Below, piece by piece: positions 6,622 through 63,489 of a stretch of 64,000 bases of DNA; within the stretch, counting starts at the first letter, position 1, and each line of letters begins with the position of its first letter. Source of the stretch: Escherichia phage PSD2001. The notes below the pieces were generated by a model. The model was not told where the DNA came from, ran no database searches, and was given only the letters and a program-made list of their open reading frames with translations. The position numbers were made by a program, and so were the translations under genes. The stretch lies in the sequence record OK254198.1; one strand, written 5' to 3'.

Positions 6622-6903
6622 TCAATCAATATAATCTTCTAAACCAAAATCATCAATTTCTTCTTGAATTTCTCTTAATACTTGTTCTTCATCTAGACCA
6701 GGACCAAAAATCACTTTAGCGTAGCCAGGTCGTTCACTAGAGAATCGAATTGTATATTCCGGTTGAATATAGCCAAAGCTGCTATCCAAATCACAAAGAA
6801 TTTCTGCATAGATTTCGGCTGGAACTGAAGCATGGATTTTAAAAAGCTCATCAATAAGAATAACCAATTCAGTTGCTTGATATGTATGGAGTTTAGTAAT
6901 CAT
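6622..6903 (-). CDS. Acidic small protein, possibly Arn-like anti-restriction protein
   Basis: 93 aa, strongly acidic C-terminus (EEQVLREIQEEIDDFGLEDYID); position between asiA and motA matches T4 arn (92 aa). Not verified. Confidence 0.4.
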   Translation of the reverse strand: MITKLHTYQATELVILIDELFKIHASVPAEIYAEILCDLDSSFGYIQPEYTIRFSSERPGYAKVIFGPGLDEEQVLREIQEEIDDFGLEDYID

Positions 6904-6992
6904 AGCCTTTACCCTTGTGCTTCTGCTTGCGTTTGGACTGCATTTCAGTTTTCTTCTTATCCTTATGGACAGACGCCTTATTGAAATCGTGT

Positions 6993-7271
6993 TTAGCTAC
7001 CAGGTTGTTCATGTAATTTCCTTAATTGGTATTCAAGAGAGCTAATAATTTCTTTATTAGTCGCAATATACATATCACGCAGGAAGGGCTTCAGGCCTTC
7101 CCTAACTCTATATGTGTTATCACTAATATCCTTTATATATTCATGGTCTAAAGCATCCCAACCTGGCTGGTTAACATAAGTTCCCCAGTTGTCTTCCATC
7201 ATAGTATTCAGATGTTTGATATGATTAATATGGTTTTCAATCGCATCAATTTGGAGTTGTTTAAGGTTCAT
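6993..7271 (-). CDS. Hypothetical protein (92 aa)
   Basis: Minus-strand ORF in the asiA-motA interval; stop abuts the next gene. Confidence 0.5.
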   Translation of the reverse strand: MNLKQLQIDAIENHINHIKHLNTMMEDNWGTYVNQPGWDALDHEYIKDISDNTYRVREGLKPFLRDMYIATNKEIISSLEYQLRKLHEQPGS

Positions 7272-7732
7272 TAGTAAAGGTCCTCTGAATAAAGTTCTTT
7301 CTCACTACCGCCACGTTCAATACGCACCTGATTTGCATAAGTCGCAATAATCATTGCTTCTTCGCGGGTCCAGTAATTGCTGTATTGGTCAATAAACCCT
7401 TGGTTATCACCGCAAACATGGTCTGACACAAGTTTATCACTTACCTGGTCAAGCACTTCTGCCATATCTTTTGAATAATGTCTGGCACCAGGAATAACCA
7501 GAGTCCCACCATCTTTTAACTTAAAGCGGTTGGCTGCGCACACAATCCTGCGCTGATATTTTTCATTGTTGTTCCAATGAGCAATCTGCCAACAGATTTC
7601 AGGAACTTCCTTTAGAATATCTTCTTCTGTGCATTTATAACCATGTGCTTTAAATTTTTCAGCAAGACTTTCTGGAGTCTCACGAGATAAAGGAACATTC
7701 AGCATTTTTAAACGATTAATAAATGGGTTCAT
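7271..7732 (-). CDS. Hypothetical protein (153 aa)
   Basis: Minus-strand ORF coupled by overlap to neighbours; no recognisable motif. Confidence 0.55.
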
Positions 7733-8061
7733 TTAAACCATCCTTTAACACGTTGCCACAGACTTTTCTGTTGAGCTTTATTAACACCAATTGAGCGAAT
7801 AACTGGTTGTGATTCCAGGTATTCTTTATAGTCAGCTTTATAGACTTCATATGCTGCTGGAACAAAGGCACCAATCGCCGCCATGAAGTTCTTGCGAGCA
7901 CCAAATGGAGCTACTGCATCATCCTGGCGATGGATAAGATACTGACCAGCTTTGACCTTGACAATAGTCCCAAGGTAAGCGCCATGATACCAAACATCCC
8001 AACCCTCTTGAGTAGGTTCTACGCAAGCACGCAATTCATTAACAATATTCAGCTTATTCAT
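7729..8061 (-). CDS. Hypothetical protein (110 aa), motA.1 position
   Basis: Minus-strand ORF immediately downstream of motA. Confidence 0.5.
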
Positions 8062-8068
8062 AATTTCC

Positions 8069-8677
8069 TCACTTTAAGATGTTAATAACATGTTGAATGT
8101 TTTCAGTTGACATATGATTGTCAATGTAGGTATTCAATCCACCTACTTTAACGCTAAATCCCACGTCTGTAAACTGTTTTACTATCTTTTGTTCAGTATT
8201 ATACGCATGCACGCGAATCTGACCATCACGACGTACATCAATCTGTTTTAATGTCTTGACACGCTTGAACTTCACAATCAGATTGCTGCGGTCTTCTGAA
8301 ATGCTCTTAAAGTCAATACCAATAGACAACAATTGCTCTTTGATATATTCTGCAGTCGCTTCCATTTCATCAGTCACACCGCGTTTTGTTCTTGTCTTCT
8401 TCACTTCCAGAAGGTCAGGATTATTTTCATTCGCCCAAAGTTCAGCTGCATCCAGAATAAGGTCAACGCCTTTTTCTGTAACCATCAAACCATCACCAGA
8501 AGCTTCAACATAGTTGTTATTCAACAATGTCTGCACACTATCAATTGATGTGTTCTGCTGGTCTAAAACAACCTCTGGACTCACGAAGTTGTTTTTGTAT
8601 ACAAACACCAGAGCATTGACATCAGTCTCATGCAGCGCGTTCTGGGAGCATTTAACGATATAATTTAACTTGTTCAC
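8069..8677 (-). CDS. motA: Middle-transcription activator MotA
   Basis: 202 aa; position between asiA and gene 52; SGDGL motif and overall size match T4 MotA (211 aa). Confidence 0.65.
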   Translation of the reverse strand: MNKLNYIVKCSQNALHETDVNALVFVYKNNFVSPEVVLDQQNTSIDSVQTLLNNNYVEASGDGLMVTEKGVDLILDAAELWANENNPDLLEVKKTRTKRGVTDEMEATAEYIKEQLLSIGIDFKSISEDRSNLIVKFKRVKTLKQIDVRRDGQIRVHAYNTEQKIVKQFTDVGFSVKVGGLNTYIDNHMSTENIQHVINILK

Positions 8678-12181: not shown

Positions 12182-12286
12182 TCATAAAAACAATTGGGAA
12201 AATGCTCAGGACAACAAACAGTACAAACATGTTCCAAATGGCTTTAAGTAACTTTTTCATAATCATCTCCAGTAGTTGATAGGTTC

Positions 12287-12315
12287 ATTATACTACAACC
12301 ACTGGAGATGTACAC
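12287..12315 (-). promoter_or_regulatory. T4-type early promoter
   Basis: Minus strand: GTGTAC, 17 nt, TATAAT. Confidence 0.4.
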
Positions 12316-12405: not shown

Positions 12406-12669
12406 TCACAATTCCACCTCAATGATTTCAAGTTGATTTTCAACAATTGCATGCTGAATACATTTATACACATCAATGGACCAGGAATTATTATATTGCC
12501 CATCAATCAAACGTTGAAGGTCTTCGCGAGTTGACAGATATGGTTGGTCTGATTCCCATTTTGATAAAAACATTGTGGTGTATGTATCGCCTTCGCCGGT
12601 GACAAAGGTCGCGGATGCAACAAATTCCCCAGTAACTTTATGCTTGACATAGTAAAATTTAAATTTCAT
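12406..12669 (-). CDS. Hypothetical protein (87 aa)
   Basis: Start moved to the internal ATG at 12669, which has a GGAGA Shine-Dalgarno; the longer frame would run through promoter 12709-12738. Confidence 0.45.
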   Translation of the reverse strand: MKFKFYYVKHKVTGEFVASATFVTGEGDTYTTMFLSKWESDQPYLSTREDLQRLIDGQYNNSWSIDVYKCIQHAIVENQLEIIEVEL

Positions 12670-12742: not shown

Positions 12743-13018
12743 TTAATTGTGCATTTGTTCTTTAACTTCTTTATATGCGCCAACTGCATTCACGACCCCA
12801 GTAAAATCTGCAGTACCGCGATAGAGATATAAAGCAATTTCAGTCAGGTGGTAGACTTCAAATTCTGAAAGATAAACGATAACGTCATAATATGCAACTT
12901 GACCCTGGACTTCGTTGAATACCACATCAAAAATTTCATGAGTTGGAAAATTGATGTTGTTGTTTTTGAGTGCTTGGATAAGAATTTGTTTGATGTTGTG
13001 AGTAGTAACGTGTTCCAT
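12743..13018 (-). CDS. Hypothetical protein (91 aa)
   Basis: Start assigned to the ATG at 13018 (MEHVTTHNIK...); upstream in-frame region is probably leader. Confidence 0.4.
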   Translation of the reverse strand: MEHVTTHNIKQILIQALKNNNINFPTHEIFDVVFNEVQGQVAYYDVIVYLSEFEVYHLTEIALYLYRGTADFTGVVNAVGAYKEVKEQMHN

Positions 13019-13065
13019 GATAATGTCCTCATTTGTTGGTATGAGGACATTATTACACAGTTGGT

Positions 13066-13659
13066 TCAGCTTGTAAACCGGTGATAGGGAAATTTTTCTT
13101 CTGAACAAGAACGGAGGTACCAGCCATCCCCTTGTGACTTTTGCACAAGACCAGACTCAGGAACGAAAGCACCAGGTCCAGCAAGGAATTTTGGCTTAAA
13201 ACGATAACCTTTGATAGTCTCTTTTACATTAAACATAATCATAAGGTCAGCAAGCTTGTGTTGCATAAAAGGACCAAGATTGACCCCGTAACCATGCGGA
13301 TAATCGCCCTGGTGACCAGTATGCACGGATATCCATTTGGAACCGGACTGATGAGTCTTGACTTCAATTCTTACGCCTTCTTTCGAAACTACATCAAATG
13401 CAAAGGAATAAGGATTATCGTAATCTTCATCACCGCCGCATAAAAAGCCGGAGGTCCATTTGGCAATAGCTTGTTCTGCCATTGTAGCCACCATACATCT
13501 TTGCATGACTTGCTCACGGTCCTGGCCAGGGTCTTTACGTAATGAATACCTGGCAGTGTCTACAATCTTTTGCAGTGATTCTGGGGTTAAGTCTTCTTTT
13601 GTATAAAGAAAGGAAGGCATCTTTTTCAGATGCTCCCATGTTTTACTCTTCTGAATCAT
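13066..13659 (-). CDS. denB: Putative endonuclease IV (DenB-like)
   Basis: 197 aa; position between ndd and rIIB as T4 denB; FDVVSKEGVRIEVKTHQSGSKWISVHTGH block. Not verified. Confidence 0.45.
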   Translation of the reverse strand: MIQKSKTWEHLKKMPSFLYTKEDLTPESLQKIVDTARYSLRKDPGQDREQVMQRCMVATMAEQAIAKWTSGFLCGGDEDYDNPYSFAFDVVSKEGVRIEVKTHQSGSKWISVHTGHQGDYPHGYGVNLGPFMQHKLADLMIMFNVKETIKGYRFKPKFLAGPGAFVPESGLVQKSQGDGWYLRSCSEEKFPYHRFTS

Positions 13660-22031: not shown

Positions 22032-22061
22032 ATTATACTCTGGCCCCAAGAGTTTGTACAC
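22032..22061 (-). promoter_or_regulatory. T4-type early promoter
   Basis: Minus strand: GTGTAC, 18 nt, TATAAT; -10 sits inside inverted repeat 22026-22047. Confidence 0.5.
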
Positions 22062-22824: not shown

Positions 22825-23081
22825 TATGCAACCTTATTGAACATCGCCAGTTGATTAGGTTGTACAACCATAATTTCACGACGACCTTTTGCATTTGACA
22901 CGTTCAGGTAGATGCCTTTGTTCATGTCTGTTTCTTTATCATATACCGCAATTTTATTGACAGTAAAGATTTTACCACGAATATTTGTAAATGCACATTC
23001 AAACGCTTTAGTCAGACCTGCTTCAGCAGCTTGAAGAGCAGACATTTCATATTGTTGGCCAATTTCAAAAGAAGTAATCAT
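22824..23081 (-). CDS. Hypothetical protein (85 aa)
   Basis: Start at the ATG at 23081; the track N-terminus (ISSTTDEDNKM) is the translated shared 5' leader. Confidence 0.45.
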   Translation of the reverse strand: MITSFEIGQQYEMSALQAAEAGLTKAFECAFTNIRGKIFTVNKIAVYDKETDMNKGIYLNVSNAKGRREIMVVQPNQLAMFNKVA

Positions 23082-23090
23082 TTTGTTATC

Positions 23091-23109
23091 CTCATCAGTA
23101 GTTGATGAG
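23091..23109 (-). promoter_or_regulatory. Shared 5' leader hairpin partly sequestering the Shine-Dalgarno
   Basis: mRNA CUCAUCA-ACUAC-UGAUGAG-GA: perfect 7-bp stem whose 3' arm overlaps GAGGA; variants recur at 27206, 33923, 35553, 53526, 39569. Confidence 0.4.
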
Positions 23110-23113
23110 ATGA

Positions 23114-23142
23114 TTATGTCTCTTTCCATTGGCCTTGTACAC
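23114..23142 (-). promoter_or_regulatory. T4-type early promoter
   Basis: Minus strand: GTGTAC, 17 nt, CATAAT. Confidence 0.4.
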
Positions 23143-24064: not shown

Positions 24065-25385
24065 AATATGCGTCGTACCTCGCTCGTGTGATTCCTACAT
24101 AAGCCAACTGGCTCGCTAATGAAGCTTCGGCCATATGGATGCATGGAGTATAGATGAATGCTTTGTCCACTGAAACGCCCTGGGCCTTGTGGATTGTACT
24201 GACCGGAAGAGCACGAACTTTCAAGAAGGTCCGGCGAGCTTTCCAGAAGTCTTTCCACTCTGGACGTTTACCAGCGGCTTTCATCTGTTTGTATGTGTCA
24301 GCAACTTTAGCCAGATATGCCTGGAATTTCGGTTGCTGGTCTTCTGGTAAAACTTTGATGCGGTCAACCTGATATTCTTCATCTTCATCAATTGACTCAA
24401 CTTCCAGGTCCCAGTAATTAATCACTAACTGGTGCGATTCACCTTTACAACGGAGAATTGTGGAAGTGTATTTGCAATCCTTGATGCGAACCAACTGACC
24501 ATTATTAAAAATGGTTTCGCTGAATTTCTTACCTTCAAATTCCAGCTCTTTCATGTGTGGCTCTTGCATAACCAGGACTTCATACGGTAAAAATGCTTTA
24601 TCCGTTTCATAGAGCTTACGGCGAATGATATTGTTCAGTTTTTCAACTGATTTATTCGTGTAAGCATACATCCGGTTTTCCATCAACATATCAGCATCTT
24701 TTACAATACTGAAATAGTTTATCATGAAATCCTTTAAAGCGGTTTGTGAGGTGAAACCTTGTACGCCATGACCTTCATACATACAATCACGGAACCAGCC
24801 ACCATTACGAATTTCTGTCGCCACTTCAATGATAGGAGCATTGCTTCGCATGACCTCAGTCAGATGAATCTGTTTGAACTTAGGATGCGTAAAGAATGGG
24901 CTTATCTTTTGTTGTGTGCTTCCTGGGTCAACTGGTTGCAGCTGGTGCATATCACCAATCCCAAGAATAGTACACCATTCAGGAACAGAGTTAAGAATAA
25001 TCTTAAACAGAGACCCGTCATACATACTTGCTTCATCACAAACCAGAACATTGCATTTTGACATGTCAGGCATTTCGCGCTGTTCAAAAACGTTTTGGTC
25101 TTCATATGTGGTCGGGTTAATCTTCAGAATACTATGGATTGTATTCGCCGTTTGACCAGACAATTTAGATAGAACCTTTTTTGCCTGGTGAGTTGGTGCA
25201 GCAAGCACAATTCCCATAACTCCATTACGCACTAAGTGGTCAATGACAAATTTTGTCAGAGTAGTTTTACCTGTGCCAGCTGGGCCATTCAGAGTGATAC
25301 ATTCCCCTGAACGTCGCTGAATAGCTTCAGTGATATAATCAAAAGCTTCTTTTTGTCCTGTGTTCAAGTCTTCAAATTTAATCAT
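24057..25385 (-). CDS. dda: DNA helicase Dda (SF1B)
   Basis: 442 aa; Walker A GPAGTGKTT plus AAPTHQAKK, VLVCDEASM, HKAQG, YVGITRAR align with T4 Dda. Confidence 0.9.
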   Translation of the reverse strand: MIKFEDLNTGQKEAFDYITEAIQRRSGECITLNGPAGTGKTTLTKFVIDHLVRNGVMGIVLAAPTHQAKKVLSKLSGQTANTIHSILKINPTTYEDQNVFEQREMPDMSKCNVLVCDEASMYDGSLFKIILNSVPEWCTILGIGDMHQLQPVDPGSTQQKISPFFTHPKFKQIHLTEVMRSNAPIIEVATEIRNGGWFRDCMYEGHGVQGFTSQTALKDFMINYFSIVKDADMLMENRMYAYTNKSVEKLNNIIRRKLYETDKAFLPYEVLVMQEPHMKELEFEGKKFSETIFNNGQLVRIKDCKYTSTILRCKGESHQLVINYWDLEVESIDEDEEYQVDRIKVLPEDQQPKFQAYLAKVADTYKQMKAAGKRPEWKDFWKARRTFLKVRALPVSTIHKAQGVSVDKAFIYTPCIHMAEASLASQLAYVGITRARYDAYYV

Positions 25386-26582: not shown

Positions 26583-27197
26583 TCAGTAAGAAAGAACGGA
26601 AAGATTCCATAATTTATAGTCTTCCCATCTATAAATGCTCTCAATAGAGTCCACGCGTAGCGTAGTTCCCGCAGGGAACATCATCTCATCTTCATCATTT
26701 ACTAATTGCAAGTTTGAAGAACGAGTTATTTCAGGATATAGTCCATTGAACTCTTCAGGAGGTGCCGCACAAATCATTTTAAAAATCGCTTCCTGATAAT
26801 CAAATGCGAATGGTGCATCATTAATACAGAAAATATTTTTGGTTCCATAGAAGCTAAAGGAAGCAAAGTTACGCGCAACACTGAAATCTTTGGAGAAACT
26901 CATTACACGGTCAAACTCAATCGTAGCACCAACACATCCTACGGTTTCAAGATATGCCAAAGTTTTCTTAGAAATCCCGCGATATAACTTACCAGGCACA
27001 ACAGAAGTCAAATTCTTACGAATAATTTTGTTCAAAGTTTCCTGGATAGTGTCTGGCTTATTTTCCATGCACTGCCAGAGTGTACTCTGTTCCAACTCAG
27101 AGTAAATTTCATCAATTTCAATCTGGGTATTTTCACGAAAATATTCACATTTAACTGCATTGATGTACTCTGCTAATTGGTGACTTGCGTACAGCAT
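26583..27197 (-). CDS. ADP-ribosyltransferase, ModA/ModB family (204 aa)
   Basis: R-S-E triad candidates: LYRG, SFSKDF, acidic DEDEMMF; start at the ATG after the shared leader; paralog of the adjacent gene. Confidence 0.5.
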   Translation of the reverse strand: MLYASHQLAEYINAVKCEYFRENTQIEIDEIYSELEQSTLWQCMENKPDTIQETLNKIIRKNLTSVVPGKLYRGISKKTLAYLETVGCVGATIEFDRVMSFSKDFSVARNFASFSFYGTKNIFCINDAPFAFDYQEAIFKMICAAPPEEFNGLYPEITRSSNLQLVNDEDEMMFPAGTTLRVDSIESIYRWEDYKLWNLSVLSY

Positions 27198-27241
27198 TTT
27201 ATTATCCTCATCAGTAGTTGATAGGAACATCTTAACGTGTC

Positions 27242-27802
27242 TTATTGCTCTTGTATACAGTCAAGAACATAATAATCACCAACAAATCCAGCATCAACTA
27301 TCACGAATTTCTGGTCAACTGGAACAAACCATTCAAGCTCAGAATCAATCATGTCCATGTATTCTTCACGTCTTAACGTTGCCGCCTGTTCGGAACCAGA
27401 AGCAGTATTGAAGAATTCCAGTGGAACGTCAAGCGCGATTTTGCGCATCGCATCATGGTAACAAAAAGCTTTGGTCTGATTCAATCTGATGATAGTCCTT
27501 GACACATATTCCATTGCAGCAAAATCCCTGGCAATACCATAGTCTTCTGTAAAGGAGGTTATCCTTCCAAATTCAAAAGGTTGCATTGATTCTTTTGCTT
27601 CATCTAACAAATCAATCTCTTGCTGGGTTACCCCACGATACAAGACTGTATCAGGTACAGATAACCTTGACTTGATGATTGAGTTAACGTTTGAATGCAA
27701 GGTCTTATCGACTTTTGATGTGCGGCATTCAAATAATGAAGCTATCTCCATTTCACTAAATTTTAACTGGTTGGGTTCGGTATCAGATTTGATGATGTTC
27801 AT
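27242..27802 (-). CDS. ADP-ribosyltransferase, ModA/ModB family (186 aa)
   Basis: LYRGV, ITSFTEDYGIARDF and acidic residues; tandem paralog as with T4 modA/modB. Confidence 0.5.
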   Translation of the reverse strand: MNIIKSDTEPNQLKFSEMEIASLFECRTSKVDKTLHSNVNSIIKSRLSVPDTVLYRGVTQQEIDLLDEAKESMQPFEFGRITSFTEDYGIARDFAAMEYVSRTIIRLNQTKAFCYHDAMRKIALDVPLEFFNTASGSEQAATLRREEYMDMIDSELEWFVPVDQKFVIVDAGFVGDYYVLDCIQEQ

Positions 27803-27858
27803 AATGGCCTCTCTGTTGTAAGAAAGACCATTATGTCATTAGGAGGGGAGTAAGTAAA

Positions 27859-29453: not shown

Positions 29454-29647
29454 AGGAAACCTCGTTTAAATTCAACTTGACCATCATCATAACGGATTTC
29501 AATATTGAATTCTAAAGAATCATCATCGTGCATCATGAATGAATGTACGATAACCTCATCAAACACACCCAGACCATACTTAAAATGCACATCATGGGCA
29601 ATAACTTCATCTAAAGTTTTATTTGGTTTAATCCAACGGTTTAACAT
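29450..29647 (-). CDS. Hypothetical protein (65 aa)
   Basis: Minus-strand ORF overlapping the next gene. Confidence 0.4.
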   Translation of the reverse strand: MLNRWIKPNKTLDEVIAHDVHFKYGLGVFDEVIVHSFMMHDDDSLEFNIEIRYDDGQVEFKRGFL

Positions 29648-29692
29648 AGTATTCTCCTCTGTAGTTGAGATAATTATACCATCTCTATTAAA

Positions 29693-29719
29693 AGCAAAAA
29701 AGGGAACCCGAAGGTTCCC
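29693..29719 (-). terminator. Rho-independent terminator downstream of soc
   Basis: GGGAACC-cgaa-GGTTCCC hairpin followed by a T-run on the minus strand. Confidence 0.6.
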
Positions 29720-29724
29720 TATAA

Positions 29725-33622: not shown

Positions 33623-33916
33623 TTATTCACCTGTAACCCATTGAACAATCTTGCTGTTGTCAAATGAAGCATCGCAATACAGAACATAGTTATACTGCAT
33701 AACGTCACCAGAAGCCAGTTGGTCAGATACTTCTTTAACCATATCAGGGTGGTCACGTTTAGTAATGTTCATGATATCAGCATAAATCTGATGTTCAACA
33801 TCGGTCTGGTCAGCAGTCATGGACCACTCACAAAGGTCTTTATCAAGTCCAGCAGTAACTGGAGCTGTACCACATGATGCTACGGTAAGAATTGCTGCGA
33901 TTAATAACTTTTTCAT
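33623..33916 (-). CDS. Secreted/lipoprotein-like small protein (97 aa), possibly Spackle (Sp)-like
   Basis: Signal peptide MKKLLIAAILTVASCG; four Cys; size and position in the 61-41 interval match T4 sp. Unverified. Confidence 0.4.
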   Translation of the reverse strand: MKKLLIAAILTVASCGTAPVTAGLDKDLCEWSMTADQTDVEHQIYADIMNITKRDHPDMVKEVSDQLASGDVMQYNYVLYCDASFDNSKIVQWVTGE

Positions 33917-33974
33917 TTCAATCTCCTCAGTAGTTGATAGGGATAATATACTGCATTATCCCTTTGATGTACAC

Positions 33975-34316
33975 TTATTTTTCACCTTCAACTGAAAAAC
34001 CGGTCAATTTGTAATATTCGGCACGTGCAATATGAAGAGCTGCTTCAATATCAGTAAGGCAGATTTCTTCATTTAACAGTTGCGCTTCAACGGTCAAAAT
34101 CAGATTACGCAATGCGGTACCCTTACGCATGTCTACTTTATGAATTAGCTTGTCATCAACAAAAGCTTCAACCAGCGCATTATAGTTATCAGCAGTCTTC
34201 TGGACATACCAGTGAATACCTGCGGGGTGGAACATGCTAGAACGTTCAAAAGATGGTACACCAACAGCACTCACTTTGATTGTTACTTTTACGCGGTCTT
34301 CTGGATTAAAAGCCAT
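33975..34316 (-). CDS. Hypothetical protein (113 aa), paralog of the following small gene
   Basis: YNALVEAFVDDKLIHKVDMRKG parallels NNALVKAFVNDNKVFECDYR in ORF 34317-34529. Confidence 0.45.
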   Translation of the reverse strand: MAFNPEDRVKVTIKVSAVGVPSFERSSMFHPAGIHWYVQKTADNYNALVEAFVDDKLIHKVDMRKGTALRNLILTVEAQLLNEEICLTDIEAALHIARAEYYKLTGFSVEGEK

Positions 34317-34529
34317 TTAGATTTCCTCAGATAAGTGGATACGATAATCACATTCAAAAACTTTATTGTCATTAACAAAGGCTTTCACCAGCGCATTATT
34401 CACTTCTGCATACTGCACTGTAACCCATTCAATCATATTTTGGTCACTAACATCCAGCGCAGTTTCTTTGGTAAACATATTACCATTTTCAAACCAACCA
34501 ATAAACACTACGTTCTCTAATTTATACAT
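34317..34529 (-). CDS. Small protein (70 aa), possible Dmd-like antitoxin
   Basis: Size and position adjacent to the 61.x/sp block fit T4 dmd; assignment is positional and low confidence. Confidence 0.3.
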   Translation of the reverse strand: MYKLENVVFIGWFENGNMFTKETALDVSDQNMIEWVTVQYAEVNNALVKAFVNDNKVFECDYRIHLSEEI

Positions 34530-34847
34530 TTAGATTTCCTCACAAAACGCCCAGTCTGCATGATAAACTGTTGCGCCTTTAGTATCATTTAAACAAACCA
34601 CGTCAACAGGTGCAATCACACGATAAAGACGGGGTTCTCCTCCATACGAGCGAGCTGCTCTTCCTGCATAGATACGCGCCAAACCAATATCTTCAGTAAA
34701 AAACACACGCCCTAAATTTTTCTTACGCCCAACTTCTGACAGAACACCAGTTACATCAGGAGGACAAAGCATATTTTGGATTCCAGCATTAGAGCTTGAC
34801 CCATGATAATAAACTTTGTATTCTGCCTTGCAATCAATGGTTTTCAT
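34530..34847 (-). CDS. Hypothetical protein (105 aa)
   Basis: Minus-strand ORF preceded by the shared leader. Confidence 0.45.
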   Translation of the reverse strand: MKTIDCKAEYKVYYHGSSSNAGIQNMLCPPDVTGVLSEVGRKKNLGRVFFTEDIGLARIYAGRAARSYGGEPRLYRVIAPVDVVCLNDTKGATVYHADWAFCEEI

Positions 34848-34885
34848 TTTATTCTCCAGTAGTTGATAGAGTCATTATAACATAA

Positions 34886-34906
34886 GAAAAAGGGGCTGTA
34901 AGCCCC
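34886..34906 (-). terminator. Rho-independent terminator
   Basis: GGGGC-ttaca-GCCCC hairpin followed by TTTTTT on the minus strand. Confidence 0.55.
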
Positions 34907-34915
34907 TTTATTCAC

Positions 34916-35299: not shown

Positions 35300-35545
35300 T
35301 TTTAATTCATTAATTAAATGAAAATCTTGTGCATTGAAAGTAATGAAAAAATAATCATTCCCTTCAACTGAAGCATGACAAGCAACACTACACCAGCGCC
35401 TTGCTCTGTTCAATGAGCAATCCAAAATTTTAAAAGGCTTCAGACCAACAATGTCAGCTGTTCTTTTATTATGCTCACAAATATCAGCATACTTTTGGAG
35501 AGCTTCTTCAGATTTGAACTGGTAATGCACATTAACTAATAACAT
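35297..35545 (-). CDS. Hypothetical protein (82 aa)
   Basis: Minus-strand ORF preceded by the shared leader hairpin and a GTTTACA/TACTAT promoter. Confidence 0.45.
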   Translation of the reverse strand: MLLVNVHYQFKSEEALQKYADICEHNKRTADIVGLKPFKILDCSLNRARRWCSVACHASVEGNDYFFITFNAQDFHLINELK

Positions 35546-35613
35546 TTTATTATCCTCATCAGTAGTTGATGGGATAATAGTACACTCTTTTTATGGTGAT
35601 GTAAACCCCTAAA

Positions 35614-35632
35614 TGAAAAAGACCCGAAGGTC
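35614..35632 (-). terminator. Rho-independent terminator downstream of gene 41
   Basis: GACC-cgaa-GGTC hairpin followed by TTTTT on the minus strand. Confidence 0.5.
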
Positions 35633-35633
35633 T

Positions 35634-37073
35634 TTAGAATTTCATTTGAGCAGCAAGGTCGTCCAGGTCGCTCCTGTTGACCCTGGTTTGTCTATTCATT
35701 TCAGCCTGGCGATTCATCTCACCGGTGGCTTCTTTAACCGTAGGGCCTTGTTTAGGAGCTGAATCATCATCAATCTCGTACCAGCGCTGATTGCCTTTCT
35801 TAACACCCATCTTGAATTTATTATAGTAGTTCTTATCGCCATAACGAGACTTAAGCTGTTTGATTAACTGTAGTCCCATTTGAGCGAATTCTTCGGTCTC
35901 AACAACACCCAACATAAAGTCGGCCGTGTGAGCAATACCAAAGGATTCTGCGATGTCAGCCATATCAATCTCAGCTGCAACGTTTGCGCCCCTTGTTGTC
36001 TGCGCTGCAGTCCACAGGACTACATTTTTCTCGACCGCCAGACCACGAAGTTCTTCTGCAACCATCTTAATCAGACCGTAACTGTTTTCGGTAAACGTTT
36101 TCAGTCTTGAGCTTGCACAGATTGCCAGGTAGTCAACAATAATCACATCCGGCACAAACCCTTGCTTCAGTTTGTATTCATTCAATAATGCACGGAAGGT
36201 ATCCGCATGAGCACCGCCAGTTGGATATTGTTTTATCTTCAGAGTCCCAAGAGTCCCGGCTGCACGCCATTTTTCCATCTTAGCTTTATATTCCGCCCAT
36301 GACACATGACCTTCATCAATATCATCCAGAGATACATCCAGCAAGTTGGCATCAATACGTTTGGCACATACTTCTTCAGCCATTTCCATGCTTATATAAA
36401 GCACGTTATGACCAGTCTGAAGATAGTCGGCCGCTAACGAACAAAGTCCCAGAGATTTCCCGACGTTGGTCCCGGCCAGTAAAACGTTCTCTGTGCCGTA
36501 CTCAACTCCACCCTTCGTGATTTTATTCAGGATGTTAATGCGGAACGGAACCTTTTTCGATTTGTTCAGATAAGTCTGGAATCGAGCTTCGTAATCGTTT
36601 AACCAATCATGGCCCAGAGCAGAGTCAAAACAGATAGACAATGCATCGCGCATGATGTCGGGGATAGCACCAATATCCGGGATTCGTTTATCACGTTTAT
36701 CTTTCGGAAGTTCGGCATTACTCTGGATTTCGATAATCCTGGATGTGGCATTGAACATCGCAGATTTCTGCACATACTTCTCGGTTTCTCTAACCAACCA
36801 TTCTTGGTCTTCTGGAGTATCGGCCAGGACTCCTAAGAGTTTCTTTGTGCCTTCATATTCGACTTCAGAAAGGTCAGAACTGTCGAGCGCGATATCAAGT
36901 GCAGTCTTAGTTGGTACCGCTTGATATTCTTTTACGTGTTCGTTAATCGTATTAAAAAGGGTCTTCGCGGGACCCTTTTCAAAATATGTGTTATTCAGAT
37001 ACGGCCAGACTTTAACAAAATATTCCTTGTTAAAGAGTAGCTGGGATAAAATAGTTTCTACCACTTCCACCAC
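35634..37073 (-). CDS. 41: Replicative DNA helicase gp41 (DnaB family)
   Basis: 479 aa; Walker A GTNVGKS; LYISMEMAEEVCAKRIDAN, VDYL, KQYPTGGA match T4 gp41. Confidence 0.9.
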   Translation of the reverse strand: MVEVVETILSQLLFNKEYFVKVWPYLNNTYFEKGPAKTLFNTINEHVKEYQAVPTKTALDIALDSSDLSEVEYEGTKKLLGVLADTPEDQEWLVRETEKYVQKSAMFNATSRIIEIQSNAELPKDKRDKRIPDIGAIPDIMRDALSICFDSALGHDWLNDYEARFQTYLNKSKKVPFRINILNKITKGGVEYGTENVLLAGTNVGKSLGLCSLAADYLQTGHNVLYISMEMAEEVCAKRIDANLLDVSLDDIDEGHVSWAEYKAKMEKWRAAGTLGTLKIKQYPTGGAHADTFRALLNEYKLKQGFVPDVIIVDYLAICASSRLKTFTENSYGLIKMVAEELRGLAVEKNVVLWTAAQTTRGANVAAEIDMADIAESFGIAHTADFMLGVVETEEFAQMGLQLIKQLKSRYGDKNYYNKFKMGVKKGNQRWYEIDDDSAPKQGPTVKEATGEMNRQAEMNRQTRVNRSDLDDLAAQMKF

Positions 37074-39311: not shown

Positions 39312-39550
39312 TTTGCTTCCTTGATGATAATTACTTGTGCGTTTGATTTACGTTCAGCAACGAGTGCCCAGATAAATGCAATAAACCATCCGACCATTGT
39401 CCAACCTAACAGGAGGTTAACAAAGAAGATTCCGCAATTACTTTTGGTTCCACGCAGTAGCGCGATAATCCACGGCAGAAAATATGCTAGTGCAGCCAGG
39501 AAGAAAGAACCTGCACCAAGAACAACAGTACCCGCAATTAATGTTTCCAT
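39308..39550 (-). CDS. imm: Superinfection immunity protein (Imm-like)
   Basis: 80 aa with two transmembrane helices and a GWxxxWFIAFIWA-type motif; immediately downstream of gene 43 as T4 imm. Confidence 0.55.
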   Translation of the reverse strand: METLIAGTVVLGAGSFFLAALAYFLPWIIALLRGTKSNCGIFFVNLLLGWTMVGWFIAFIWALVAERKSNAQVIIIKEAK

Positions 39551-39619
39551 TTTAATATCCTTAAGTTATTCATCAGTTGATGAGGTAATCATACGGCAAT
39601 CCATTGCCGTTGTAAACAC

Positions 39620-45537: not shown

Positions 45538-45756
45538 TTAATCAAAGTATTCATATGCAAACCAGGCATTGTGTCTGTTCGCGATTATTTTAACATATTC
45601 TTCACCGAAAGCGTTTTGTAAGTCACGTTCAGTAACAAGGTGTTCATCTTTCGAAAAGGTATTAACTAACACATACCGTTTAATTTCAGGGACAGCCAGT
45701 AAATGCTGCCCGGTTAAAAAATTGCTCATAAATAATATTATCCGTTGCAGTATCAA
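45538..45756 (-). CDS. Hypothetical protein (72 aa)
   Basis: Minus-strand ORF divergent from the HNH gene. Confidence 0.4.
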   Translation of the reverse strand: MILQRIILFMSNFLTGQHLLAVPEIKRYVLVNTFSKDEHLVTERDLQNAFGEEYVKIIANRHNAWFAYEYFD

Positions 45757-45769
45757 ACAAGGGTCTGAT

Positions 45770-46486
45770 ATGAATTATAACATCATTTACCAAAAGCTTA
45801 TTAGCAGAGCATTGAATCGCAAATTAACCACATACTCTGAAAGTCATCACATTATACCCCGTTGTATGGGTGGGGCAGACGATGCTTCAAATCTTGTTGA
45901 TTTAACTCCCGAGGAACATTTCGTTTGTCATCAACTGTTGGTCAAAATGCATCCAAATAATGCTTCTTTGGTCTATGCCGCGCGCATGATGACAGTTTCC
46001 TCACCAAACGCCGACAGAAGCAAAAACAAATTATTTGGATGGCTTCGTCGTAAAAACTTGGAAGCTCAACAAAATAAAATTTTCTCCGATGAAACCAGAA
46101 AGAAAATGTCAGAATCCGCCAAATTAAAACCGAGAGTTGAATGTCCACACTGTGGAAAAACCGGTCTCGTTGGCAATATGAATCGTTGGCATTTTGATAA
46201 CTGTTCCAAAGGTCCAAACAAGGTTGTTCATACTATTCCAGAAAAACAAAAGCAAAAAATTTCAGTAGGATTAAAACAAGCTAAACATGAAATTTTAACT
46301 TGTGAATTTTGTGGTCTTGAAGGTAAAAAGTGTGTTATATCCACTCACCAACAATTCTGCAAATCCAATCCAAACCGGAAGAAAAAGGTGGACCCCAAAA
46401 TTCAGTGTCCACATTGTAATGTAGTCGGTACGCCAGCCAATATGAAACGTTGGCATTTTGATAACTGCAAAATGAAGCCTCAATAA
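45770..46486 (+). CDS. HNH homing endonuclease with three C-terminal zinc-finger-like repeats
   Basis: Start at the ATG at 45770 (MNYNIIYQK...); HNH core SESHHIIPRCMGGADDASNLVDLTPEEHFVCH; repeats ECPHCGKTGLVGNMNRWHFDNC, TCEFCGLEGKKC...QQFCKSN, QCPHCNVVGTPANMKRWHFDNC; opposite strand to all neighbours. Confidence 0.7.
   Translation: MNYNIIYQKLISRALNRKLTTYSESHHIIPRCMGGADDASNLVDLTPEEHFVCHQLLVKMHPNNASLVYAARMMTVSSPNADRSKNKLFGWLRRKNLEAQQNKIFSDETRKKMSESAKLKPRVECPHCGKTGLVGNMNRWHFDNCSKGPNKVVHTIPEKQKQKISVGLKQAKHEILTCEFCGLEGKKCVISTHQQFCKSNPNRKKKVDPKIQCPHCNVVGTPANMKRWHFDNCKMKPQ
45770..46486 (+). mobile_element. Free-standing homing endonuclease gene inserted between 45.2 and 46
   Basis: Single opposite-strand gene wedged between conserved replication/recombination genes, the usual arrangement for T-even mob/seg elements. 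Confidence 0.55.
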
Positions 46487-46491
46487 GAGGC

Positions 46492-48174
46492 TCATTCCAG
46501 AACAGTAAATCGACCGACTTTTTTCATTTGAAGATGCTGCCCATATGCTTCTGGGTCGTGTTCACGATGGCTAATGATAAACACGTTTTGACCTTCCAAT
46601 TTATTAATAATTGCCTGGATAGCTTTGATGCCTTCGGCGTCAGTGGCTGAATCCATGACCTCATCCAGAATCAACGTACTAATTTGCACACCAGATACTT
46701 TCGCAGCAATATCACGCCATGTAAACAGCAATGCAATATCGATACGAGCTTTTTCGCCCTGGCTAAATGATGCATAGCTGAAGTCTTCACGTCCACGAGA
46801 TTTAATCGTTTCGTTGAACTCTTCATCTAACGTAAAACTATAATCAGCTTCCATAACTTTAAGGTAAGCGTTTATCTGCTTATTAAAGATAGGAATATAT
46901 TTCTTAATAATCGCACCTTTGATACCAGAATCTTTCAACATATCCGTTAGGATGCCACGTTGATATTTTTCCATCACAAGGTCAGATTTCTGTTTGACTA
47001 TTTTATCAAGCTGGTCTTGAAGCATTTTAATGTCTGCTGCATGGTCAATAAATTCTGACTTAGCTTGCTCGATTAATGCTTTAACCTTTTTAGCCTTTTC
47101 AACAGTCTGGACTAAGGTTTGTTTCTTAGTTTGAATGTCTTGGGCTATTGTACGCTGGTTTTGTCTTGCAGCAGAATACGTATCAAATTGCTCCTGAACA
47201 GCATTCTGACGAGCTTTATGCTTATCAGCTGATGCATTACATTCTTCAATCTTTGACTCAATCCTGGCGACAATGGGGTCTCCTGGATGCAACTGACTGG
47301 CACAAGTCTGACAGCAACCACCTTTCTCGTACAGACCAACAACCTTTCGGTAATCGTCAATCTTCGATTTAATCAGGAATGATTCCTGCTTTAACTTCGT
47401 GAGTTCATGCTCAGGGTCTTCTCCCAAGATTATCTCGGTCAGTCTTGTCGTTGCTTCTTCGATAGTCGTTTTGATTCCACGTGCTTCCGTGGCAAGTTCA
47501 TCATACATCGTTTGCAGCCGCAACAGATTATCACCTGATAATTTTCTTTGACGGTCTTCGTTGTCCTGATAGATTTTAATCTGTTGAACAATACCATCAT
47601 GCTGCACATCCATCACCTGGATTTGACTATTGACTTCGCGGATAAGAGATTTGTTCAGCTTATCCATATCGGCCAGTACAGAAACCTCTAAAAGGTCTTC
47701 GACAAGTTTTCTTCTTGCAGGAGTGGATAGGCCCATAAAAGGGGTATATCCAGCTGTGCCGAGTACGACAATCTGTTTGAAGCTTGCATAGGACATTCCG
47801 ATAAGCTGTTCAAATTCTGCTTGGAAGTCTTTACTGCTGGCAGATTCATCAAGACGTTTACCGCCACAAGAGATTTCAAAAACATTGGGTTTTTGCCCGC
47901 GTTTGATATAGTATTCTTTTCCATCATATTCCATCCACAATTCAACGAGCATATCTTTTTTGTTGCTCGAGTTAATCAACTGGCCTTTCTTTACATCACG
48001 GAAAGGCTTACCGAACATAGCAAAGGTAACCGCTTCAAGGAACGTAGATTTACCCGCACCATTCTTACCGGTGACCAGAGTTTTTTGGACTTTATCCAGT
48101 TCAACAGTAATCGGTTGAGCACCAACCGACATAATATTTTTATAGATAACTTTCTTAAGCTTAAAAGTCTTCAC
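46492..48174 (-). CDS. 46: Recombination endonuclease subunit gp46 (Rad50/SbcC-like)
   Basis: 560 aa (same as T4 gp46); Walker A GKNGAGKST, long coiled coil, signature and D-loop region near the C-terminus. Confidence 0.9.
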   Translation of the reverse strand: MKTFKLKKVIYKNIMSVGAQPITVELDKVQKTLVTGKNGAGKSTFLEAVTFAMFGKPFRDVKKGQLINSSNKKDMLVELWMEYDGKEYYIKRGQKPNVFEISCGGKRLDESASSKDFQAEFEQLIGMSYASFKQIVVLGTAGYTPFMGLSTPARRKLVEDLLEVSVLADMDKLNKSLIREVNSQIQVMDVQHDGIVQQIKIYQDNEDRQRKLSGDNLLRLQTMYDELATEARGIKTTIEEATTRLTEIILGEDPEHELTKLKQESFLIKSKIDDYRKVVGLYEKGGCCQTCASQLHPGDPIVARIESKIEECNASADKHKARQNAVQEQFDTYSAARQNQRTIAQDIQTKKQTLVQTVEKAKKVKALIEQAKSEFIDHAADIKMLQDQLDKIVKQKSDLVMEKYQRGILTDMLKDSGIKGAIIKKYIPIFNKQINAYLKVMEADYSFTLDEEFNETIKSRGREDFSYASFSQGEKARIDIALLFTWRDIAAKVSGVQISTLILDEVMDSATDAEGIKAIQAIINKLEGQNVFIISHREHDPEAYGQHLQMKKVGRFTVLE

Positions 48175-49783: not shown

Positions 49784-49825
49784 ATACTCTCCTCAGTTGG
49801 TTCATTTTATCATCCCGAATATAAA

Positions 49826-52534: not shown

Positions 52535-52582
52535 TTAAAATTTTATTATCCTGGGGTCATTATACCATGACCCCGTTGGTTT

Positions 52583-53338: not shown

Positions 53339-53517
53339 AATTTAGGTCCTTTTGCAACTGTATTGAACAAGCTACGGTCACACACCATCAACGGAGCATC
53401 AGGCCATTTCAAAGGACGATACCATACATCTTGGTCAGTCACTTTGGTTACTTGTACAGGATAACCATTTACAGAATAATACTGGTCGGCTTTAATTTCT
53501 TTATCTTCAATAGCCAT
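53335..53517 (-). CDS. Hypothetical protein (60 aa)
   Basis: Start at the ATG after the shared leader; the track N-terminus (IPSTTDEENKM) is translated leader. Confidence 0.4.
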   Translation of the reverse strand: MAIEDKEIKADQYYSVNGYPVQVTKVTDQDVWYRPLKWPDAPLMVCDRSLFNTVAKGPKL

Positions 53518-53584
53518 TTTGTTTTCCTCATCAGTAGTTGATGGGATAATGATACACCGTTCAAAGGGGCTTGTACACCCCTTT

Positions 53585-54182: not shown

Positions 54183-54418
54183 TCTTTCACCTTCATCATT
54201 TTTGCAATGGTACTATGGACAGCCTGGATTCGTTTGTCGAACTCAGACCCTTCAAGGTCAGGATTGGTGCTTAACCAACCGATGATAACAAACAGCAAAC
54301 CAAACGGAATAGCCAGAATAAGCAGACAAACGATGAACAAAACAAGCGTTATGTTTGCCAGAATATCTGCTGCAGCATTTCTAAATTTATCCATATTTAC
54401 CCTTAATTGATTAACCAA
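54179..54418 (-). CDS. Small membrane protein (79 aa)
   Basis: One strongly hydrophobic helix (ITLVLFIVCLLILAIPFGLLFVIIGWL). Confidence 0.45.
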   Translation of the reverse strand: MVNQLRVNMDKFRNAAADILANITLVLFIVCLLILAIPFGLLFVIIGWLSTNPDLEGSEFDKRIQAVHSTIAKMMKVKE

Positions 54419-54508
54419 GCATTGATAAGCACTAAACTATACTGCGAATAAAATTCTGGACCAAAATGAAAAATCATATCATTTATAGTATCCATAATAT
54501 AATTAAAT

Positions 54509-54979
54509 TTAATCATGTTTCCACACCCCATCGGTATTTGACCAAAGTCGCTGATTATCTGACCCTCGCCACAGTTTTTTGGTCGGAAGATTTTTCTCAT
54601 ACTTCCCATCAATAATAACATCAACATATTTAAGCATTTCTAGTTGTTTAATATCTTCAAACTTATATCCTGTCCACAGCCAAATGCTTTTATTGGGATA
54701 AAGATTTTTAATAGTTTGAACCACAGAGTGAATAACATCTCGGTTATCAGGATAGAGAGGGTCTCCTCCAGTTATAGTTAATCCTTCTATATAATCATTA
54801 TTCAAACATTCAATTAATTGTTCTAGTGTTTCACCAGTGAATGGAACACCATTTCTAGCATTCCATGTTGATTTATTATAACACCCTTCGCATTTATGCA
54901 AACAACCTGTAACGAAAAGAACGACCCTACAACCAGGGCCATTCACAAAATCGCAAGGATAAAATCTATCATAATTCAT
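54509..54979 (-). CDS. nrdG: Anaerobic ribonucleotide reductase activating protein NrdG (radical SAM)
   Basis: 156 aa (same as T4 NrdG); Cys cluster CLHKCEGC. Confidence 0.9.
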   Translation of the reverse strand: MNYDRFYPCDFVNGPGCRVVLFVTGCLHKCEGCYNKSTWNARNGVPFTGETLEQLIECLNNDYIEGLTITGGDPLYPDNRDVIHSVVQTIKNLYPNKSIWLWTGYKFEDIKQLEMLKYVDVIIDGKYEKNLPTKKLWRGSDNQRLWSNTDGVWKHD

Positions 54980-56793: not shown

Positions 56794-56930
56794 TTTAAAC
56801 TCTTTCTAAGCTGCTTCTTAAATGAAGCCATTAATTGTGTTTTGGTGTCAGATTCATTATAAGTCATACCATTCAAAAGCATTTCCCGAATCATTTCTTC
56901 TTTCCCCAGGCGACGGATAATATCATTCAT
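56790..56930 (-). pseudogene. 49: Remnant of endonuclease VII (gene 49) C-terminal domain
   Basis: 46-codon frame MNDIIRRLGKEEMIREMLLNGMTYNESDTKTQLMASFKKQLRKSLK matches my recollection of the T4 gp49 C-terminus; no credible Shine-Dalgarno; upstream continuation has an in-frame TAA and a frameshift; no N-terminal catalytic domain in any frame. Confidence 0.4.
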
Positions 56931-56988
56931 AGATTCGACTAAAGCATAAAATGTTTAGCCGTAAAAATTAATCATTTGAGCGATTTCC

Positions 56989-58065: not shown

Positions 58066-58103
58066 ACCAAATACCTTTAATGTTAATTAGATATAGGTAT
58101 TTA

Positions 58104-63459: not shown

Positions 63460-63489
63460 ATTATACGTCTATCCCCATACTATGTACAC
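63460..63489 (-). promoter_or_regulatory. T4-type early promoter
   Basis: Minus strand: GTGTAC, 18 nt, TATAAT; shares the AACTCAGTATGG block with other cassettes. Confidence 0.45.

Follow-up and report, generated by a model that had tools for sequence, protein, structure and literature searches.

The 5' leader that recurs before several early genes in a 64,000-nt stretch of Escherichia phage PSD2001 (OK254198.1; we call the whole stretch the window and number positions from its first letter) had been described in an earlier note as a hairpin overlapping the Shine-Dalgarno (SD) sequence. We find that, judged by its sequence, this leader forms the 3' end of a PeSL-type cassette with a sigma-70-type early promoter rather than a free-standing element, and that it recurs because such cassettes are repeated. 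The best explanation, which we consider probable but far from settled, is that the cassette is combined with transcript-selective masking of the SD in read-through RNA, a function that we infer from predicted folds. In Gaprivervirus, CUG-AUGAGGA makes UGAUG complementary to (C)AUCA across the transcription start site. RNA initiated at the cassette's own promoter would lack the 5' arm, leaving the SD open for immediate translation and making the RNA a candidate RegB substrate. Read-through RNA, started further upstream, would additionally carry the discriminator and the -10 box, and could fold into an 8-13-bp stem that masks the SD or the AUG (the latter by an AUG helix at 23081). Genes masked in this way would be translated mainly from their own immediate-early transcripts.

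Around the finding, the sequence shares 96-98% identity with Escherichia phages P479, RZ and VR20 and with Shigella phage SP18, and the records of RZ and VR7 place them in Tevenvirinae, genus Gaprivervirus. By sequence the window covers the early/replication arm of a T4 relative in this genus that resembles SP18, VR7 and RZ. With annotation transferred from RZ and VR7, its genes include rII, 39, motB, dexA, dda, srd, modA/B, 61, 41 and uvsX, as well as imm, 43, 45, 55, nrdH and onwards. These genes lie on the minus strand, so the finding has to be read as the reverse complement, and all cassettes and motifs described below are on that strand. The exact 18-mer ATCAACTACTGATGAGGA occurs four times, at 23089-23106, 27205-27222, 35553-35570 and 53525-53542, before the genes starting at 23081, 27197 (modA), 35545 and 53517 (gene 55.6), which we refer to as the core loci. 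Allowing up to three mismatches gives six matches where 0.06 are expected, a number reached in 0 of 100 shuffles; the recurrence described in the earlier note is real. Looser searches add 33921-33938 (sp), a copy near 34856 (true ATG 34847), 12263-12280 (before a 36-amino-acid (aa) open reading frame (ORF)) and a variant at imm (39570-39581), bringing the family to eight members with the ATCAAC block. BLAST of the 64-nt cassette against phages returned only 33 Gaprivervirus-type records, with 3-8 places each. As these copies are nearly invariant, we made comparisons by orthologous position in JS98, T4 and RB69. A degenerate scan of viral contigs (TACA-N17-TANNNT-N8-CAACTAC) gave 120 matches, nearly all of them chance occurrences in unrelated contigs and of no use for covariation, and an Rfam search of the whole window at the gathering threshold matched no family.

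The minus strand of 23079-23141 reads GTGTACA-AGGCCAATGGAAAGAGA-CATAAT-CATCTC-ATCAACTACTGATGAGGATAACAAA-ATG, so that the interval 23091-23142, which the earlier note had taken for a leader, holds a whole promoter (-35 box at 23136-23141) as well as leader sequence. The order is the same throughout: -35, spacer, -10, a gNNCC(C/U)AU start block, AUCAACUACUG, the SD with an A-rich spacer, and AUG, which follows +1 by 20-25 nt. All eight family copies have a -10-like hexamer exactly 8 nt before CAACTAC, with at least four of six matches to TATAAT, and all eight have a -35 box (TGTACA, TTTACA, CTTACA or TATACA) 16-17 bp further upstream; these predicted promoters are intergenic and face the downstream ORF. 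Leaders are 20-31 nt long, and the 3' end of the cassette is GAGGA or GGAG, 7-8 nt and the ATG, with the result that nearly each base of such a short leader belongs to some signal. Early transcription starts have been mapped in RB49 (Nolan et al. 2006, PMC1524935), and T4-type early promoters, whose -10 box is numbered -12 to -7, prefer C at -3 to -1 in RB69, RB49 and 44RR (PMC1524935). Using that numbering we assigned +1 to the seventh nucleotide after the -10 box, which places the predicted start at the A of AUCAAC, the sole purine between -3 and +3. The UP-like A-tract, the GT(G/T)TAC -35, the 17-bp spacer and the C-rich -3 to -1 are all shared with T4-type early promoters (PMC2988021, PMC1524935). 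Those descriptions do not explain the AUCAACUACUG block (+1 to +11), which JS98 also has and which RB69 and T4 have in part.

The same start block is found at orthologous promoters of JS98 (ATCAACTGAGGAG at modA, ATCAACATGAGGAG at motB.2, ATCAACTACATGAGGA at imm, and also ATCAACTACTGGAGG and ATCAACTACTGAGGAG), of RB69 (ATCAACTACAGAGG) and of T4 (ATAAACTACTGAGGAG at sp and ATAGCTACTGAGGATAATAAAATG at motB.2, the latter at the position of P8.1 of Hinton 2010, PMC2988021). In these three phages it stands without the palindrome, in JS98 in the form ATCAAC(A)TGAGGAG, and the CTG+ATGAGGA that places UGAUG opposite (C)AUCA is present only in the Gaprivervirus copies. From these alignments we read the leader block as old and the palindrome as local to Gaprivervirus. 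In early promoters of JS98 (such as 7753-7809) and RB69 (such as 7373-7428), a TGATA(C/T)TAT sequence flanking the -10 is complementary to the (A)TATCA start block, and the two form an inner helix in the read-through folds. Mutual pairing of two promoter consensus blocks, as these models predict it, may be part of the reason for conservation of the start block.

Would the cassette's own mRNA contain the hairpin? The stem had been proposed as part of the transcribed leader, but its 5' arm starts at -1 or upstream of the predicted +1. Since the predicted start falls within that arm (C-AUCA straddles +1), own mRNA cannot hold the full hairpin. Folded from +1, only AUCA/UGAU remains, four base pairs at -0.6 kcal/mol with a z score near 0 against shuffles, and the suggested check of leader folding thus comes out against a stable structure. 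In own-promoter RNA, opening of the SD costs 0.5-2.1 kcal/mol at the core loci (1.2 at 23081 and 2.1 at 35545) and 0.5-2.4 kcal/mol over the window's cassettes. These values bear directly on the model of the earlier note, in which the hairpin of the leader itself tunes translation initiation or is a recognition structure for RegB or RNase E. A 5-bp stem ending at the SD can indeed be drawn at four loci, a start at -1 instead would give a stem of -3.6 kcal/mol, and the leaders hold RegB-consensus sequence. The predicted +1, however, removes the closing C-G pair and leaves a weak, A/U-rich remnant, the SD is nearly free, half of the family has kept the leader without a 3' arm, Rfam offers no match, and RegB is inhibited rather than guided by structure (PMC3014915). 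We consider this model quite improbable. Protection from RNase E by a 5'-terminal stem was a further candidate, which we rejected given that the own-mRNA stem amounts to just those 4 bp.

Read-through RNA behaves differently in the models. There the stem grows into the discriminator and the -10 box, to 8-13 bp, and opening the SD is predicted to cost 9.2 kcal/mol at 35545, 8.5 at 23081, 5.6 at 55.6 and 4.7 at modA. When the upstream part was replaced by dinucleotide shuffles, the observed cost was reached in 0% of them at 35545 and in 2% at 23081; the read-through fold at 35545 has a z score of -3.2, and the VR7 orthologue of 55.6 has a cost of 8.4 kcal/mol, reached by 3% of shuffles. The proposal of a common translational control therefore survives as a prediction for read-through RNA and fails as control of a gene by its own leader.

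At 23081, the -35 box TGTACA (23136-23141), preceded by a flank, AAAACGATAAAAAGT, that T4 P8.1 and JS98 have conserved as well, is followed after a 17-bp spacer by the -10 CATAAT (23113-23118) and by the predicted +1, an A at 23106. The predicted structure, formed only in read-through RNA, spans 23076-23115. Its inner helix, CUCAUCA/UGAUGAG (23103-23109 with 23091-23097), contains the CAUCA/UGAUG core (23093-23107), and the start codon is paired in its outer helix, AAUCAU/AUGAUU (23110-23115 with 23076-23081). The SD GAGGA lies at 23089-23093, the RegB-consensus-like GGAUAACAAAA at 23081-23091 and the ATG at 23079-23081, opening a VR7ORF013c-like ORF of 85 aa. The 35545 cassette (35543-35605) serves an 82-aa ORF like RZ gp069 that is absent from VR7, with -35 TTTACA at 35600-35605, -10 TACTAT at 35577-35582, +1 at 35570 and ATG at 35543-35545. 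Its 13-bp read-through stem, UAUUAUCCCAUCA/UGAUGaGGAUAAUA (35548-35579), pairs the -10 box with the SD and spacer. At modA and 55.6 the read-through pairing is (U)CC(C/U)AUCA with UGAUgAGG(A). The modA cassette (27195-27257) has its -35 TATACA (27252-27257) inside the 3' end of modB, a -10 TAAGAT (27229-27234), +1 at 27222, its core at 27209-27223, SD at 27205-27209 and ATG at 27195-27197. In the 55.6 cassette (53515-53577), the -35 TGTACA (53572-53577) sits in the loop of a GGGG...CCCCTTT hairpin; the -10 TATCAT (53549-53554) and +1 (53542) are followed by the core hairpin (53529-53543, with a CC/GG extension), the SD at 53525-53529 within GGAAAACAAAA, which does not fit the RegB consensus, and the ATG at 53515-53517. 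The core CAUCA/UGAUG reported for four loci is thus present at 23081, 35545 and 53517, and in the form UAUCA/UGAUG with a U.G pair also at 27197.

The remaining copy counted among those four, the imm variant (39548-39616), has a -35 TTTACA (39611-39616), its own spacer hairpin ACGGCAA..UUGCCGU, a -10 TATGAT (39588-39593), +1 at 39581, a stem UCAUC/GAUGA at 39570-39583 and ATG at 39548-39550. Here the statement that the stem runs into the SD does not hold: AAGGA lies 12 nt downstream of the stem (12-17 nt in RZ and VR7), and the SD AGGA (39558-39561) is outside it. The imm leader varies among three congeners (window 39570-39589, RZ 35680-35706, VR7 25285-25314), with a 3-nt deletion, CAAC---TGATGA, in the window, the full CATCAACTACTGATGA in RZ and VR7, and different 8-17-nt inserts before the SD in those two; the palindrome is kept in all three.

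To compare promoters at natural composition, we exchanged them among leaders. The mean cost with a leader's own promoter exceeded the permutations in the window (p = 0.004), in JS98 (p = 0.026) and in T4 (p = 0.012), and the signal comes from a few loci at which the own promoter ranks first or second. The strong loci of the window are modB, the promoter at 13077 and the 36-aa ORF, with read-through costs of 14.4, 13.8 and 15.2 kcal/mol; in own RNA the cost is 1.0 at modB and 2.3 at the 13077 promoter. Both the 36-aa ORF and the 13077-promoter cassette rank 1 of 17 in the swaps. The modB cassette (27800-27858, -10 CATAAT) has a different leader but the same design, and its read-through stem (27800-27835) pairs the -10 and discriminator GGUCUUUCU with AGAGAGGCCAUUAUG, masking SD and AUG. 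The 13077 promoter belongs to the cassette of a 91-aa ORF (13016-13077), with a stem at 13020-13054 of AAUAAUGUCCUCAU (-10 through +2) and AUGAGGACAUUAU (SD and spacer), in which the pairing GUCCUCAU/AUGAGGAC is lengthened by the -10. The third, a family member at 12258-12314, precedes an unannotated ORF (MKKLLKAI...); its 18-bp stem (12264-12310; -25.5 kcal/mol, z -6.8) joins the spacer CAUCUCCAGUGGUUGUAG to the leader and SD CAACUACUGGAGAUG and leaves the -10 and +1 in the loop. RZ has the same 36-aa ORF sequence in a gap between annotated genes (6872-7101). In other genomes the strong loci are modB, motB.2 and 55.6 in JS98 and modB and motB.2 in T4, and in RB69 motB.2 (17.1 kcal/mol), modB and 55.6 rank 1-2 of 14.

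It is at these loci that covariation can be seen. RNAalifold of five modB sequences from four genera gives a 14-bp stem running from the -10 hexamer to the AUG with three compensatory pairs, such as -10 TATAAT versus TATGAT matched by AUUAUG versus AUCAUG; the sample is five because the search for ModB homologues, apart from T4-type modB variants, mostly returned the paralogue modA. For motB.2/P8.1, where five related loci were found with the single T4 MotB.2 protein as query and 16 with an alignment query, the stem takes three arm types, UCCUCGGUuAGUUGUGGU/ACCAUAGCUACUGAGGA in T4, UUCUCCUCAUG/CAUGAGGAGAA in JS98 and UCUCCUCUGGUU/AACCAGAGGAGA in RB69. In each type the two arms pair along their full length and the loop holds the -10 and +1 (minimum free energy -20 to -33 kcal/mol); only the mRNA-sense strand allows the G.U pairs. 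In distant homologues the discriminator serves as 5' arm (CCUUCCU/AGGAGGG). An outer helix encloses the motB.2/P8.1 hairpin in T4 (8150-8235) and JS98 (7745-7830), pairing dexA-proximal ACGAUAAA (T4) or UCGAUAAA (JS98) with motB.2 codons 3-5, UUUAUCGU or UUUAUCGA; it shows an A-U to U-A compensatory change by way of a synonymous Arg codon, and the motB.2 AUG pairs with UUGUUU of the -35 region. By position, the gene that follows dexA is orthologous to the 23081 locus, with the AAAACGATAAAAAGT flank and the -35 conserved. In Gaprivervirus the ORF has been replaced (85 aa versus about 167 aa), and masking there comes from the arrangement of the recurrent leader family. For the extended arms at 23081 and 35545, divergent orthologues are few. 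At modB, the motB.2 slot, 55.6 and two small ORFs, the modelled masking is strong and specific to the locus, and covariation in other genera speaks for its conservation. At the four core loci the modelled masking is moderate and largely generic: nearly any early promoter masks these leaders moderately, because the shared CCYAU(CA) pairs with (UG)AUGAGG.

Several observations weigh against selective masking at the recurrent leader. The four core loci rank only 4-10 of 17 in the promoter swaps, and shuffles reach the read-through cost in 16% of cases at modA and 19% at 55.6, neither of which is significant. No masking is predicted in read-through RNA of imm (0.8 kcal/mol), sp (0.9) or 34847 (3.6), and the persistence of the imm palindrome with the SD outside it fits sequence conservation better than SD masking. 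In the suggested alignment of instances, which we carried out on 19 related leaders, no pair of the CAUCA/UGAUG stem is changed on both sides, paired cells make up 82.8% against 82.9% in shuffles, and 12 of the 19 break the A-U pair at columns 9-21. Promoter-swap permutation is not significant in RB69 (p = 0.31), and the design is therefore gene-specific and not general. The assignment of +1 rests on a spacing rule and a sole purine rather than on a start mapped in the phage, a primer-extension study on DksA lists no starts for the promoters concerned, and the folding energies are in-silico equilibrium values that ignore co-transcriptional ribosome loading.

It is also possible that the palindrome is incidental, the product of two adjacent and independently conserved blocks, a (C/U)AUCA start-site block and an (A)UGAGGA SD variant after CUG, which recombination has copied together and which have no function of their own as a pair. 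The lack of compensatory changes, the paired percentage equal to that of shuffles, the unremarkable swap rank and the palindrome kept at imm without touching the SD would all follow, as would the start block and (A)TGAGGAG SDs found without the palindrome in JS98, RB69 and T4; and over 18-30 nt the four copies do not differ, as recent conversion predicts. But at 23081 and 35545 complementarity extends into the locus-specific -10 and discriminator and on to the AUG, and modB, motB.2 and 55.6 show clear selection for this layout across four genera. We regard an incidental palindrome as a serious rival, if on the whole an unlikely one.

Transcript-selective masking, the explanation that we favour, has counterparts in T4. 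Delayed-early and middle RNA of T4 arises partly by extension of early transcripts (PMC2988021), and we predict no terminator-like site upstream of the 23141 or 27257 promoters. The T4 genes e, soc, 49 and I-TevI have a hairpin that sequesters the ribosome-binding site, with a promoter inside its 5' strand (PMC3014915). As in those genes, the SD or AUG is paired in the long RNA initiated upstream (here by prediction), the proximal promoter starts inside or after the 5' arm and yields an open RNA (here with an inferred start), and related phages conserve the arrangement, here with compensatory change at modB and motB.2 but none in the 5-bp core. The T4 cases use late gp55 TATAAATA promoters, however, where the cassettes have an early sigma-70 promoter with a -35 box, and the effect is opposite: translation is delayed in the T4 late genes and would here be confined to the immediate-early burst. 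The stems at the core loci are also much weaker than at T4 gene e. The hairpin thus works like those of the T4 late-gene family without being a member of the described set, having no late promoter. Confinement to the immediate-early burst is plausible for ModA, which is described as highly toxic (PMC2988021), and for ModB. We tentatively extend this model, at less than even confidence, to the proposal that some T-even immediate-early genes (modB, motB.2/P8.1, 55.6 and small ORFs) have an early promoter nested in an RNA hairpin, with promoter DNA (spacer, -10 or discriminator) as its 5' arm and the SD or AUG as its 3' arm, such that they would be translatable only from own-promoter RNA and silent and RegB-resistant on delayed-early and middle read-through RNA, the hairpin of the recurrent leader being a weak generic version. 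In the T4 reviews and PeSL papers that we consulted we did not find an early-promoter version of the promoter-in-hairpin described, though an earlier description is possible.

As to the cassette itself, PeSL elements comprise an A/T-rich tract, an early promoter, a stem-loop of variable position, which in many cases overlaps the -10 or lies between it and the -35, and an SD and ATG at the 3' end; RB49 has five subclasses, and the elements are enriched at indels between close relatives (PMC2839356, PMC4122927). Like them, the cassettes of the window are built from these parts, repeated and intergenic; a genome has several, they neighbour small ORFs of unknown function, and they occur where close relatives differ by an insertion, deletion or replacement. 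The 302-nt segment 35297-35600, holding the 82-aa ORF and the 3' half of a cassette of the recurrent family, is bounded by two -35 boxes and absent from VR7. VR7 has in its place a single chimeric cassette that joins the upstream flank and -35 of that family (family A) to the -10 and leader of another (family B), which places the crossover at the -35 box. Directly upstream of the sp cassette (33983), the window has 357 nt, VR7 a different 288 nt and RZ none, and the replaced ORF 12429-12664 starts at the ATG of a family-B leader. Compared with RZ or VR7, the window has large inserted or replaced segments at 33983-34341 (these 357 nt), 45720-46494 (773 nt), 54394-56794 (2.4 kb) and 56917-58086 (1.2 kb). 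We propose that recombination between cassettes keeps the copies alike. There are differences from PeSLs as well: the RB49 promoters are near-consensus TTGACA where these are of the T-even type (GTGTACA/GTTTACA), and conservation is concentrated from -10 to ATG rather than covering about 100 bp. Gaprivervirus is not among the phages analysed in the PeSL papers (PMC2839356, PMC4122927), and on sequence grounds the recurrent leader is a known kind, a PeSL or T-even early-promoter cassette, in a further genus.

The stem of the leader also differs from PeSL stem-loops in having its 3' arm in the SD and no U tract, and is therefore probably not a terminator. Stem-loops in or near the window's promoters vary in position, as among the RB49 subclasses, and include GGGG..-35..CCCC(U)n at 53577 and 34902, the imm spacer hairpin, a terminator-like element at 35618-35635 just upstream of 35605, and the -10/SD stems at 23081, 35545 and 12260. 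PeSL stem-loops overlapping the -10 terminate transcription in RB49 and phi1 (PMC2839356), and one could read the leader stems as terminators or attenuators in turn, given the terminator-like hairpins beside some cassettes (35618-35635, 34889-34909 and 53560-53580). Those upstream G/C hairpins do have U tracts. The leader stems are weak (5-13 bp, A/U-rich), are followed by GAGGAUAAUAAAAUG instead of a U tract, and lie downstream of the promoter they would protect; we rejected this reading as very improbable. Alternatively, the inverted repeats could act in DNA, as protein operators or recombination signals. The cassettes' position at indel and replacement junctions, the near-perfect DNA palindrome TCATCA-N-TGATGA at 23081 and imm, and the suggestion of the PeSL authors that stem-loops are targets of recombination proteins (PMC2839356) speak for this. 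Yet the G.U pairs of the conserved stems would be C.A mismatches in a cruciform or in the opposite strand, the 3' arm is always the SD or the AUG, which points to translation, and the junction that we mapped is at the -35 box, not the palindrome. We hold a DNA-level role to be improbable.

The suggestion of an RNase site fares better for the SD and spacer than for the hairpin. RegB cuts GGAG/U, recognises GGA with A-rich sequence 3' of it and is inhibited by structure, and the consensus of strong RegB/S1 sites in T4 early translation initiation regions is GG*AGRAYARAA (PMC3014915). GGAKRAYARAA occurs eight times in the window where 0.9 are expected, on the coding strand only, and six of the eight are in promoter-proximal leaders: GGATAACAAAA at 23081, GGATAATAAAA at 27197 and 35545, and GGAGAATAAAA at 34847, 8895 and 63423. 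The other two, 49805-49815 (GGATGATAAAA) and 52541-52551 (GGATAATAAAA), fall outside the catalogued promoter-proximal leaders, presumably at other gene starts. The leader of 55.6, GGAAAACAAAA, has no match to the consensus. The sequence thus supports GGA(U/G)AAYAAAA, the SD plus spacer, as a candidate RegB/S1 site, and the hairpin itself is not the site. As in T4, GGA(G/U)AAYAAAA stands directly before the AUG in promoter-proximal early leaders; three of the four core leaders differ from the T4 consensus in having GGAU, a less common variant, and 55.6 has GGAA. A regB gene is annotated in VR7 at 54452-54910 and would lie outside the window here.

Two family members have no palindrome. The sp (spackle) cassette (33914-33973) has no TGATG arm and reads AUCAACUACUGAGGAGAUUGAAAUG. 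The 34847 cassette (34845-34902), before a gene like RB69 orf040c, has a terminator-like GGGGCUUACAGCCCCUUUUU enclosing its -35 and a leader, AUCAACUACUGGAGAAUAAAAUG, that is a perfect RegB consensus. More widely, the leader families of minus-strand early promoters share gNNCC(C/T)AT after the -10 and diverge beyond it: family A (ATCAACTACTG...) has eight copies, family B (ATACTGAGTTAC...) five and family C two. Family B has -35 positions 63488, 35296, 26500, 12737 and 8973, a -10 followed by g(a/t)tcccAT and ACTGAGTTAC(C/A)AA..., longer leaders (28-45 nt) and no SD masking; family C, with -35 positions 22060 and 11407, has gNNcccAC and TGGAG.A.AAAC after the -10. The pairs 35296/8973 and 22060/11407 are duplicated promoters, since each has its entire -35/-10 spacer in common. 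At about 29636-29720, a terminator AGGGAACCTTCGGGTTCCCTTTTTT precedes a look-alike of a MotA-type middle promoter (TTTTGCTTTT-N11-TATAAT). The related leader TATCTCAACTACAGAGGAGAATACTATG follows this putative middle promoter at a different spacing to the -10, and the CAACTAC block therefore also occurs behind a non-early promoter.

The cassette also affects annotation. RZ (18820) and VR7 (8275) start the 23081 orthologue at an in-frame ATG that lies within the promoter spacer (ggccaATGgaa) and comes 51 nt before the ATG with an SD; this start adds MERDIIISSTTDEDNK to the protein. The earlier note was right that the leader is translated as a spurious N-terminus: STTDEDNKM is TCA ACT ACT GAT GAG GAT AAY AAA ATG, and the start annotated in RZ and VR7 yields it. 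The public start of this orthologue (VR7ORF013c / RZ gp041) is, going by the sequence, probably mis-annotated, which would mean that annotations of the genus start at least one ORF inside its own promoter. We dismissed an out-of-frame AUG inside CUGAUGAGG as a start codon, as it has no SD.

Having placed the recurrent leader within an early-promoter cassette, we can ask what it means for these phages. Should the palindrome be incidental, what is left is a repeated promoter cassette of a familiar kind. As markers of module boundaries that are prone to recombination, the cassettes are of use in comparing or engineering therapeutic T4-like phages. The shut-off of early promoters is not fully explained (Hinton 2010, PMC2988021; Uzan & Miller 2010, PMC3014915), and transcript-selective gating, if true, would add post-transcriptional control to the way in which T4-type phages turn off the synthesis of early proteins. 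The resistance of some intergenic GGAG/U sites to RegB would then be explained too, and toxic enzymes like ModA and ModB would be made only in the first-minute burst from their own promoters, despite continued transcription of longer RNAs through their genes.

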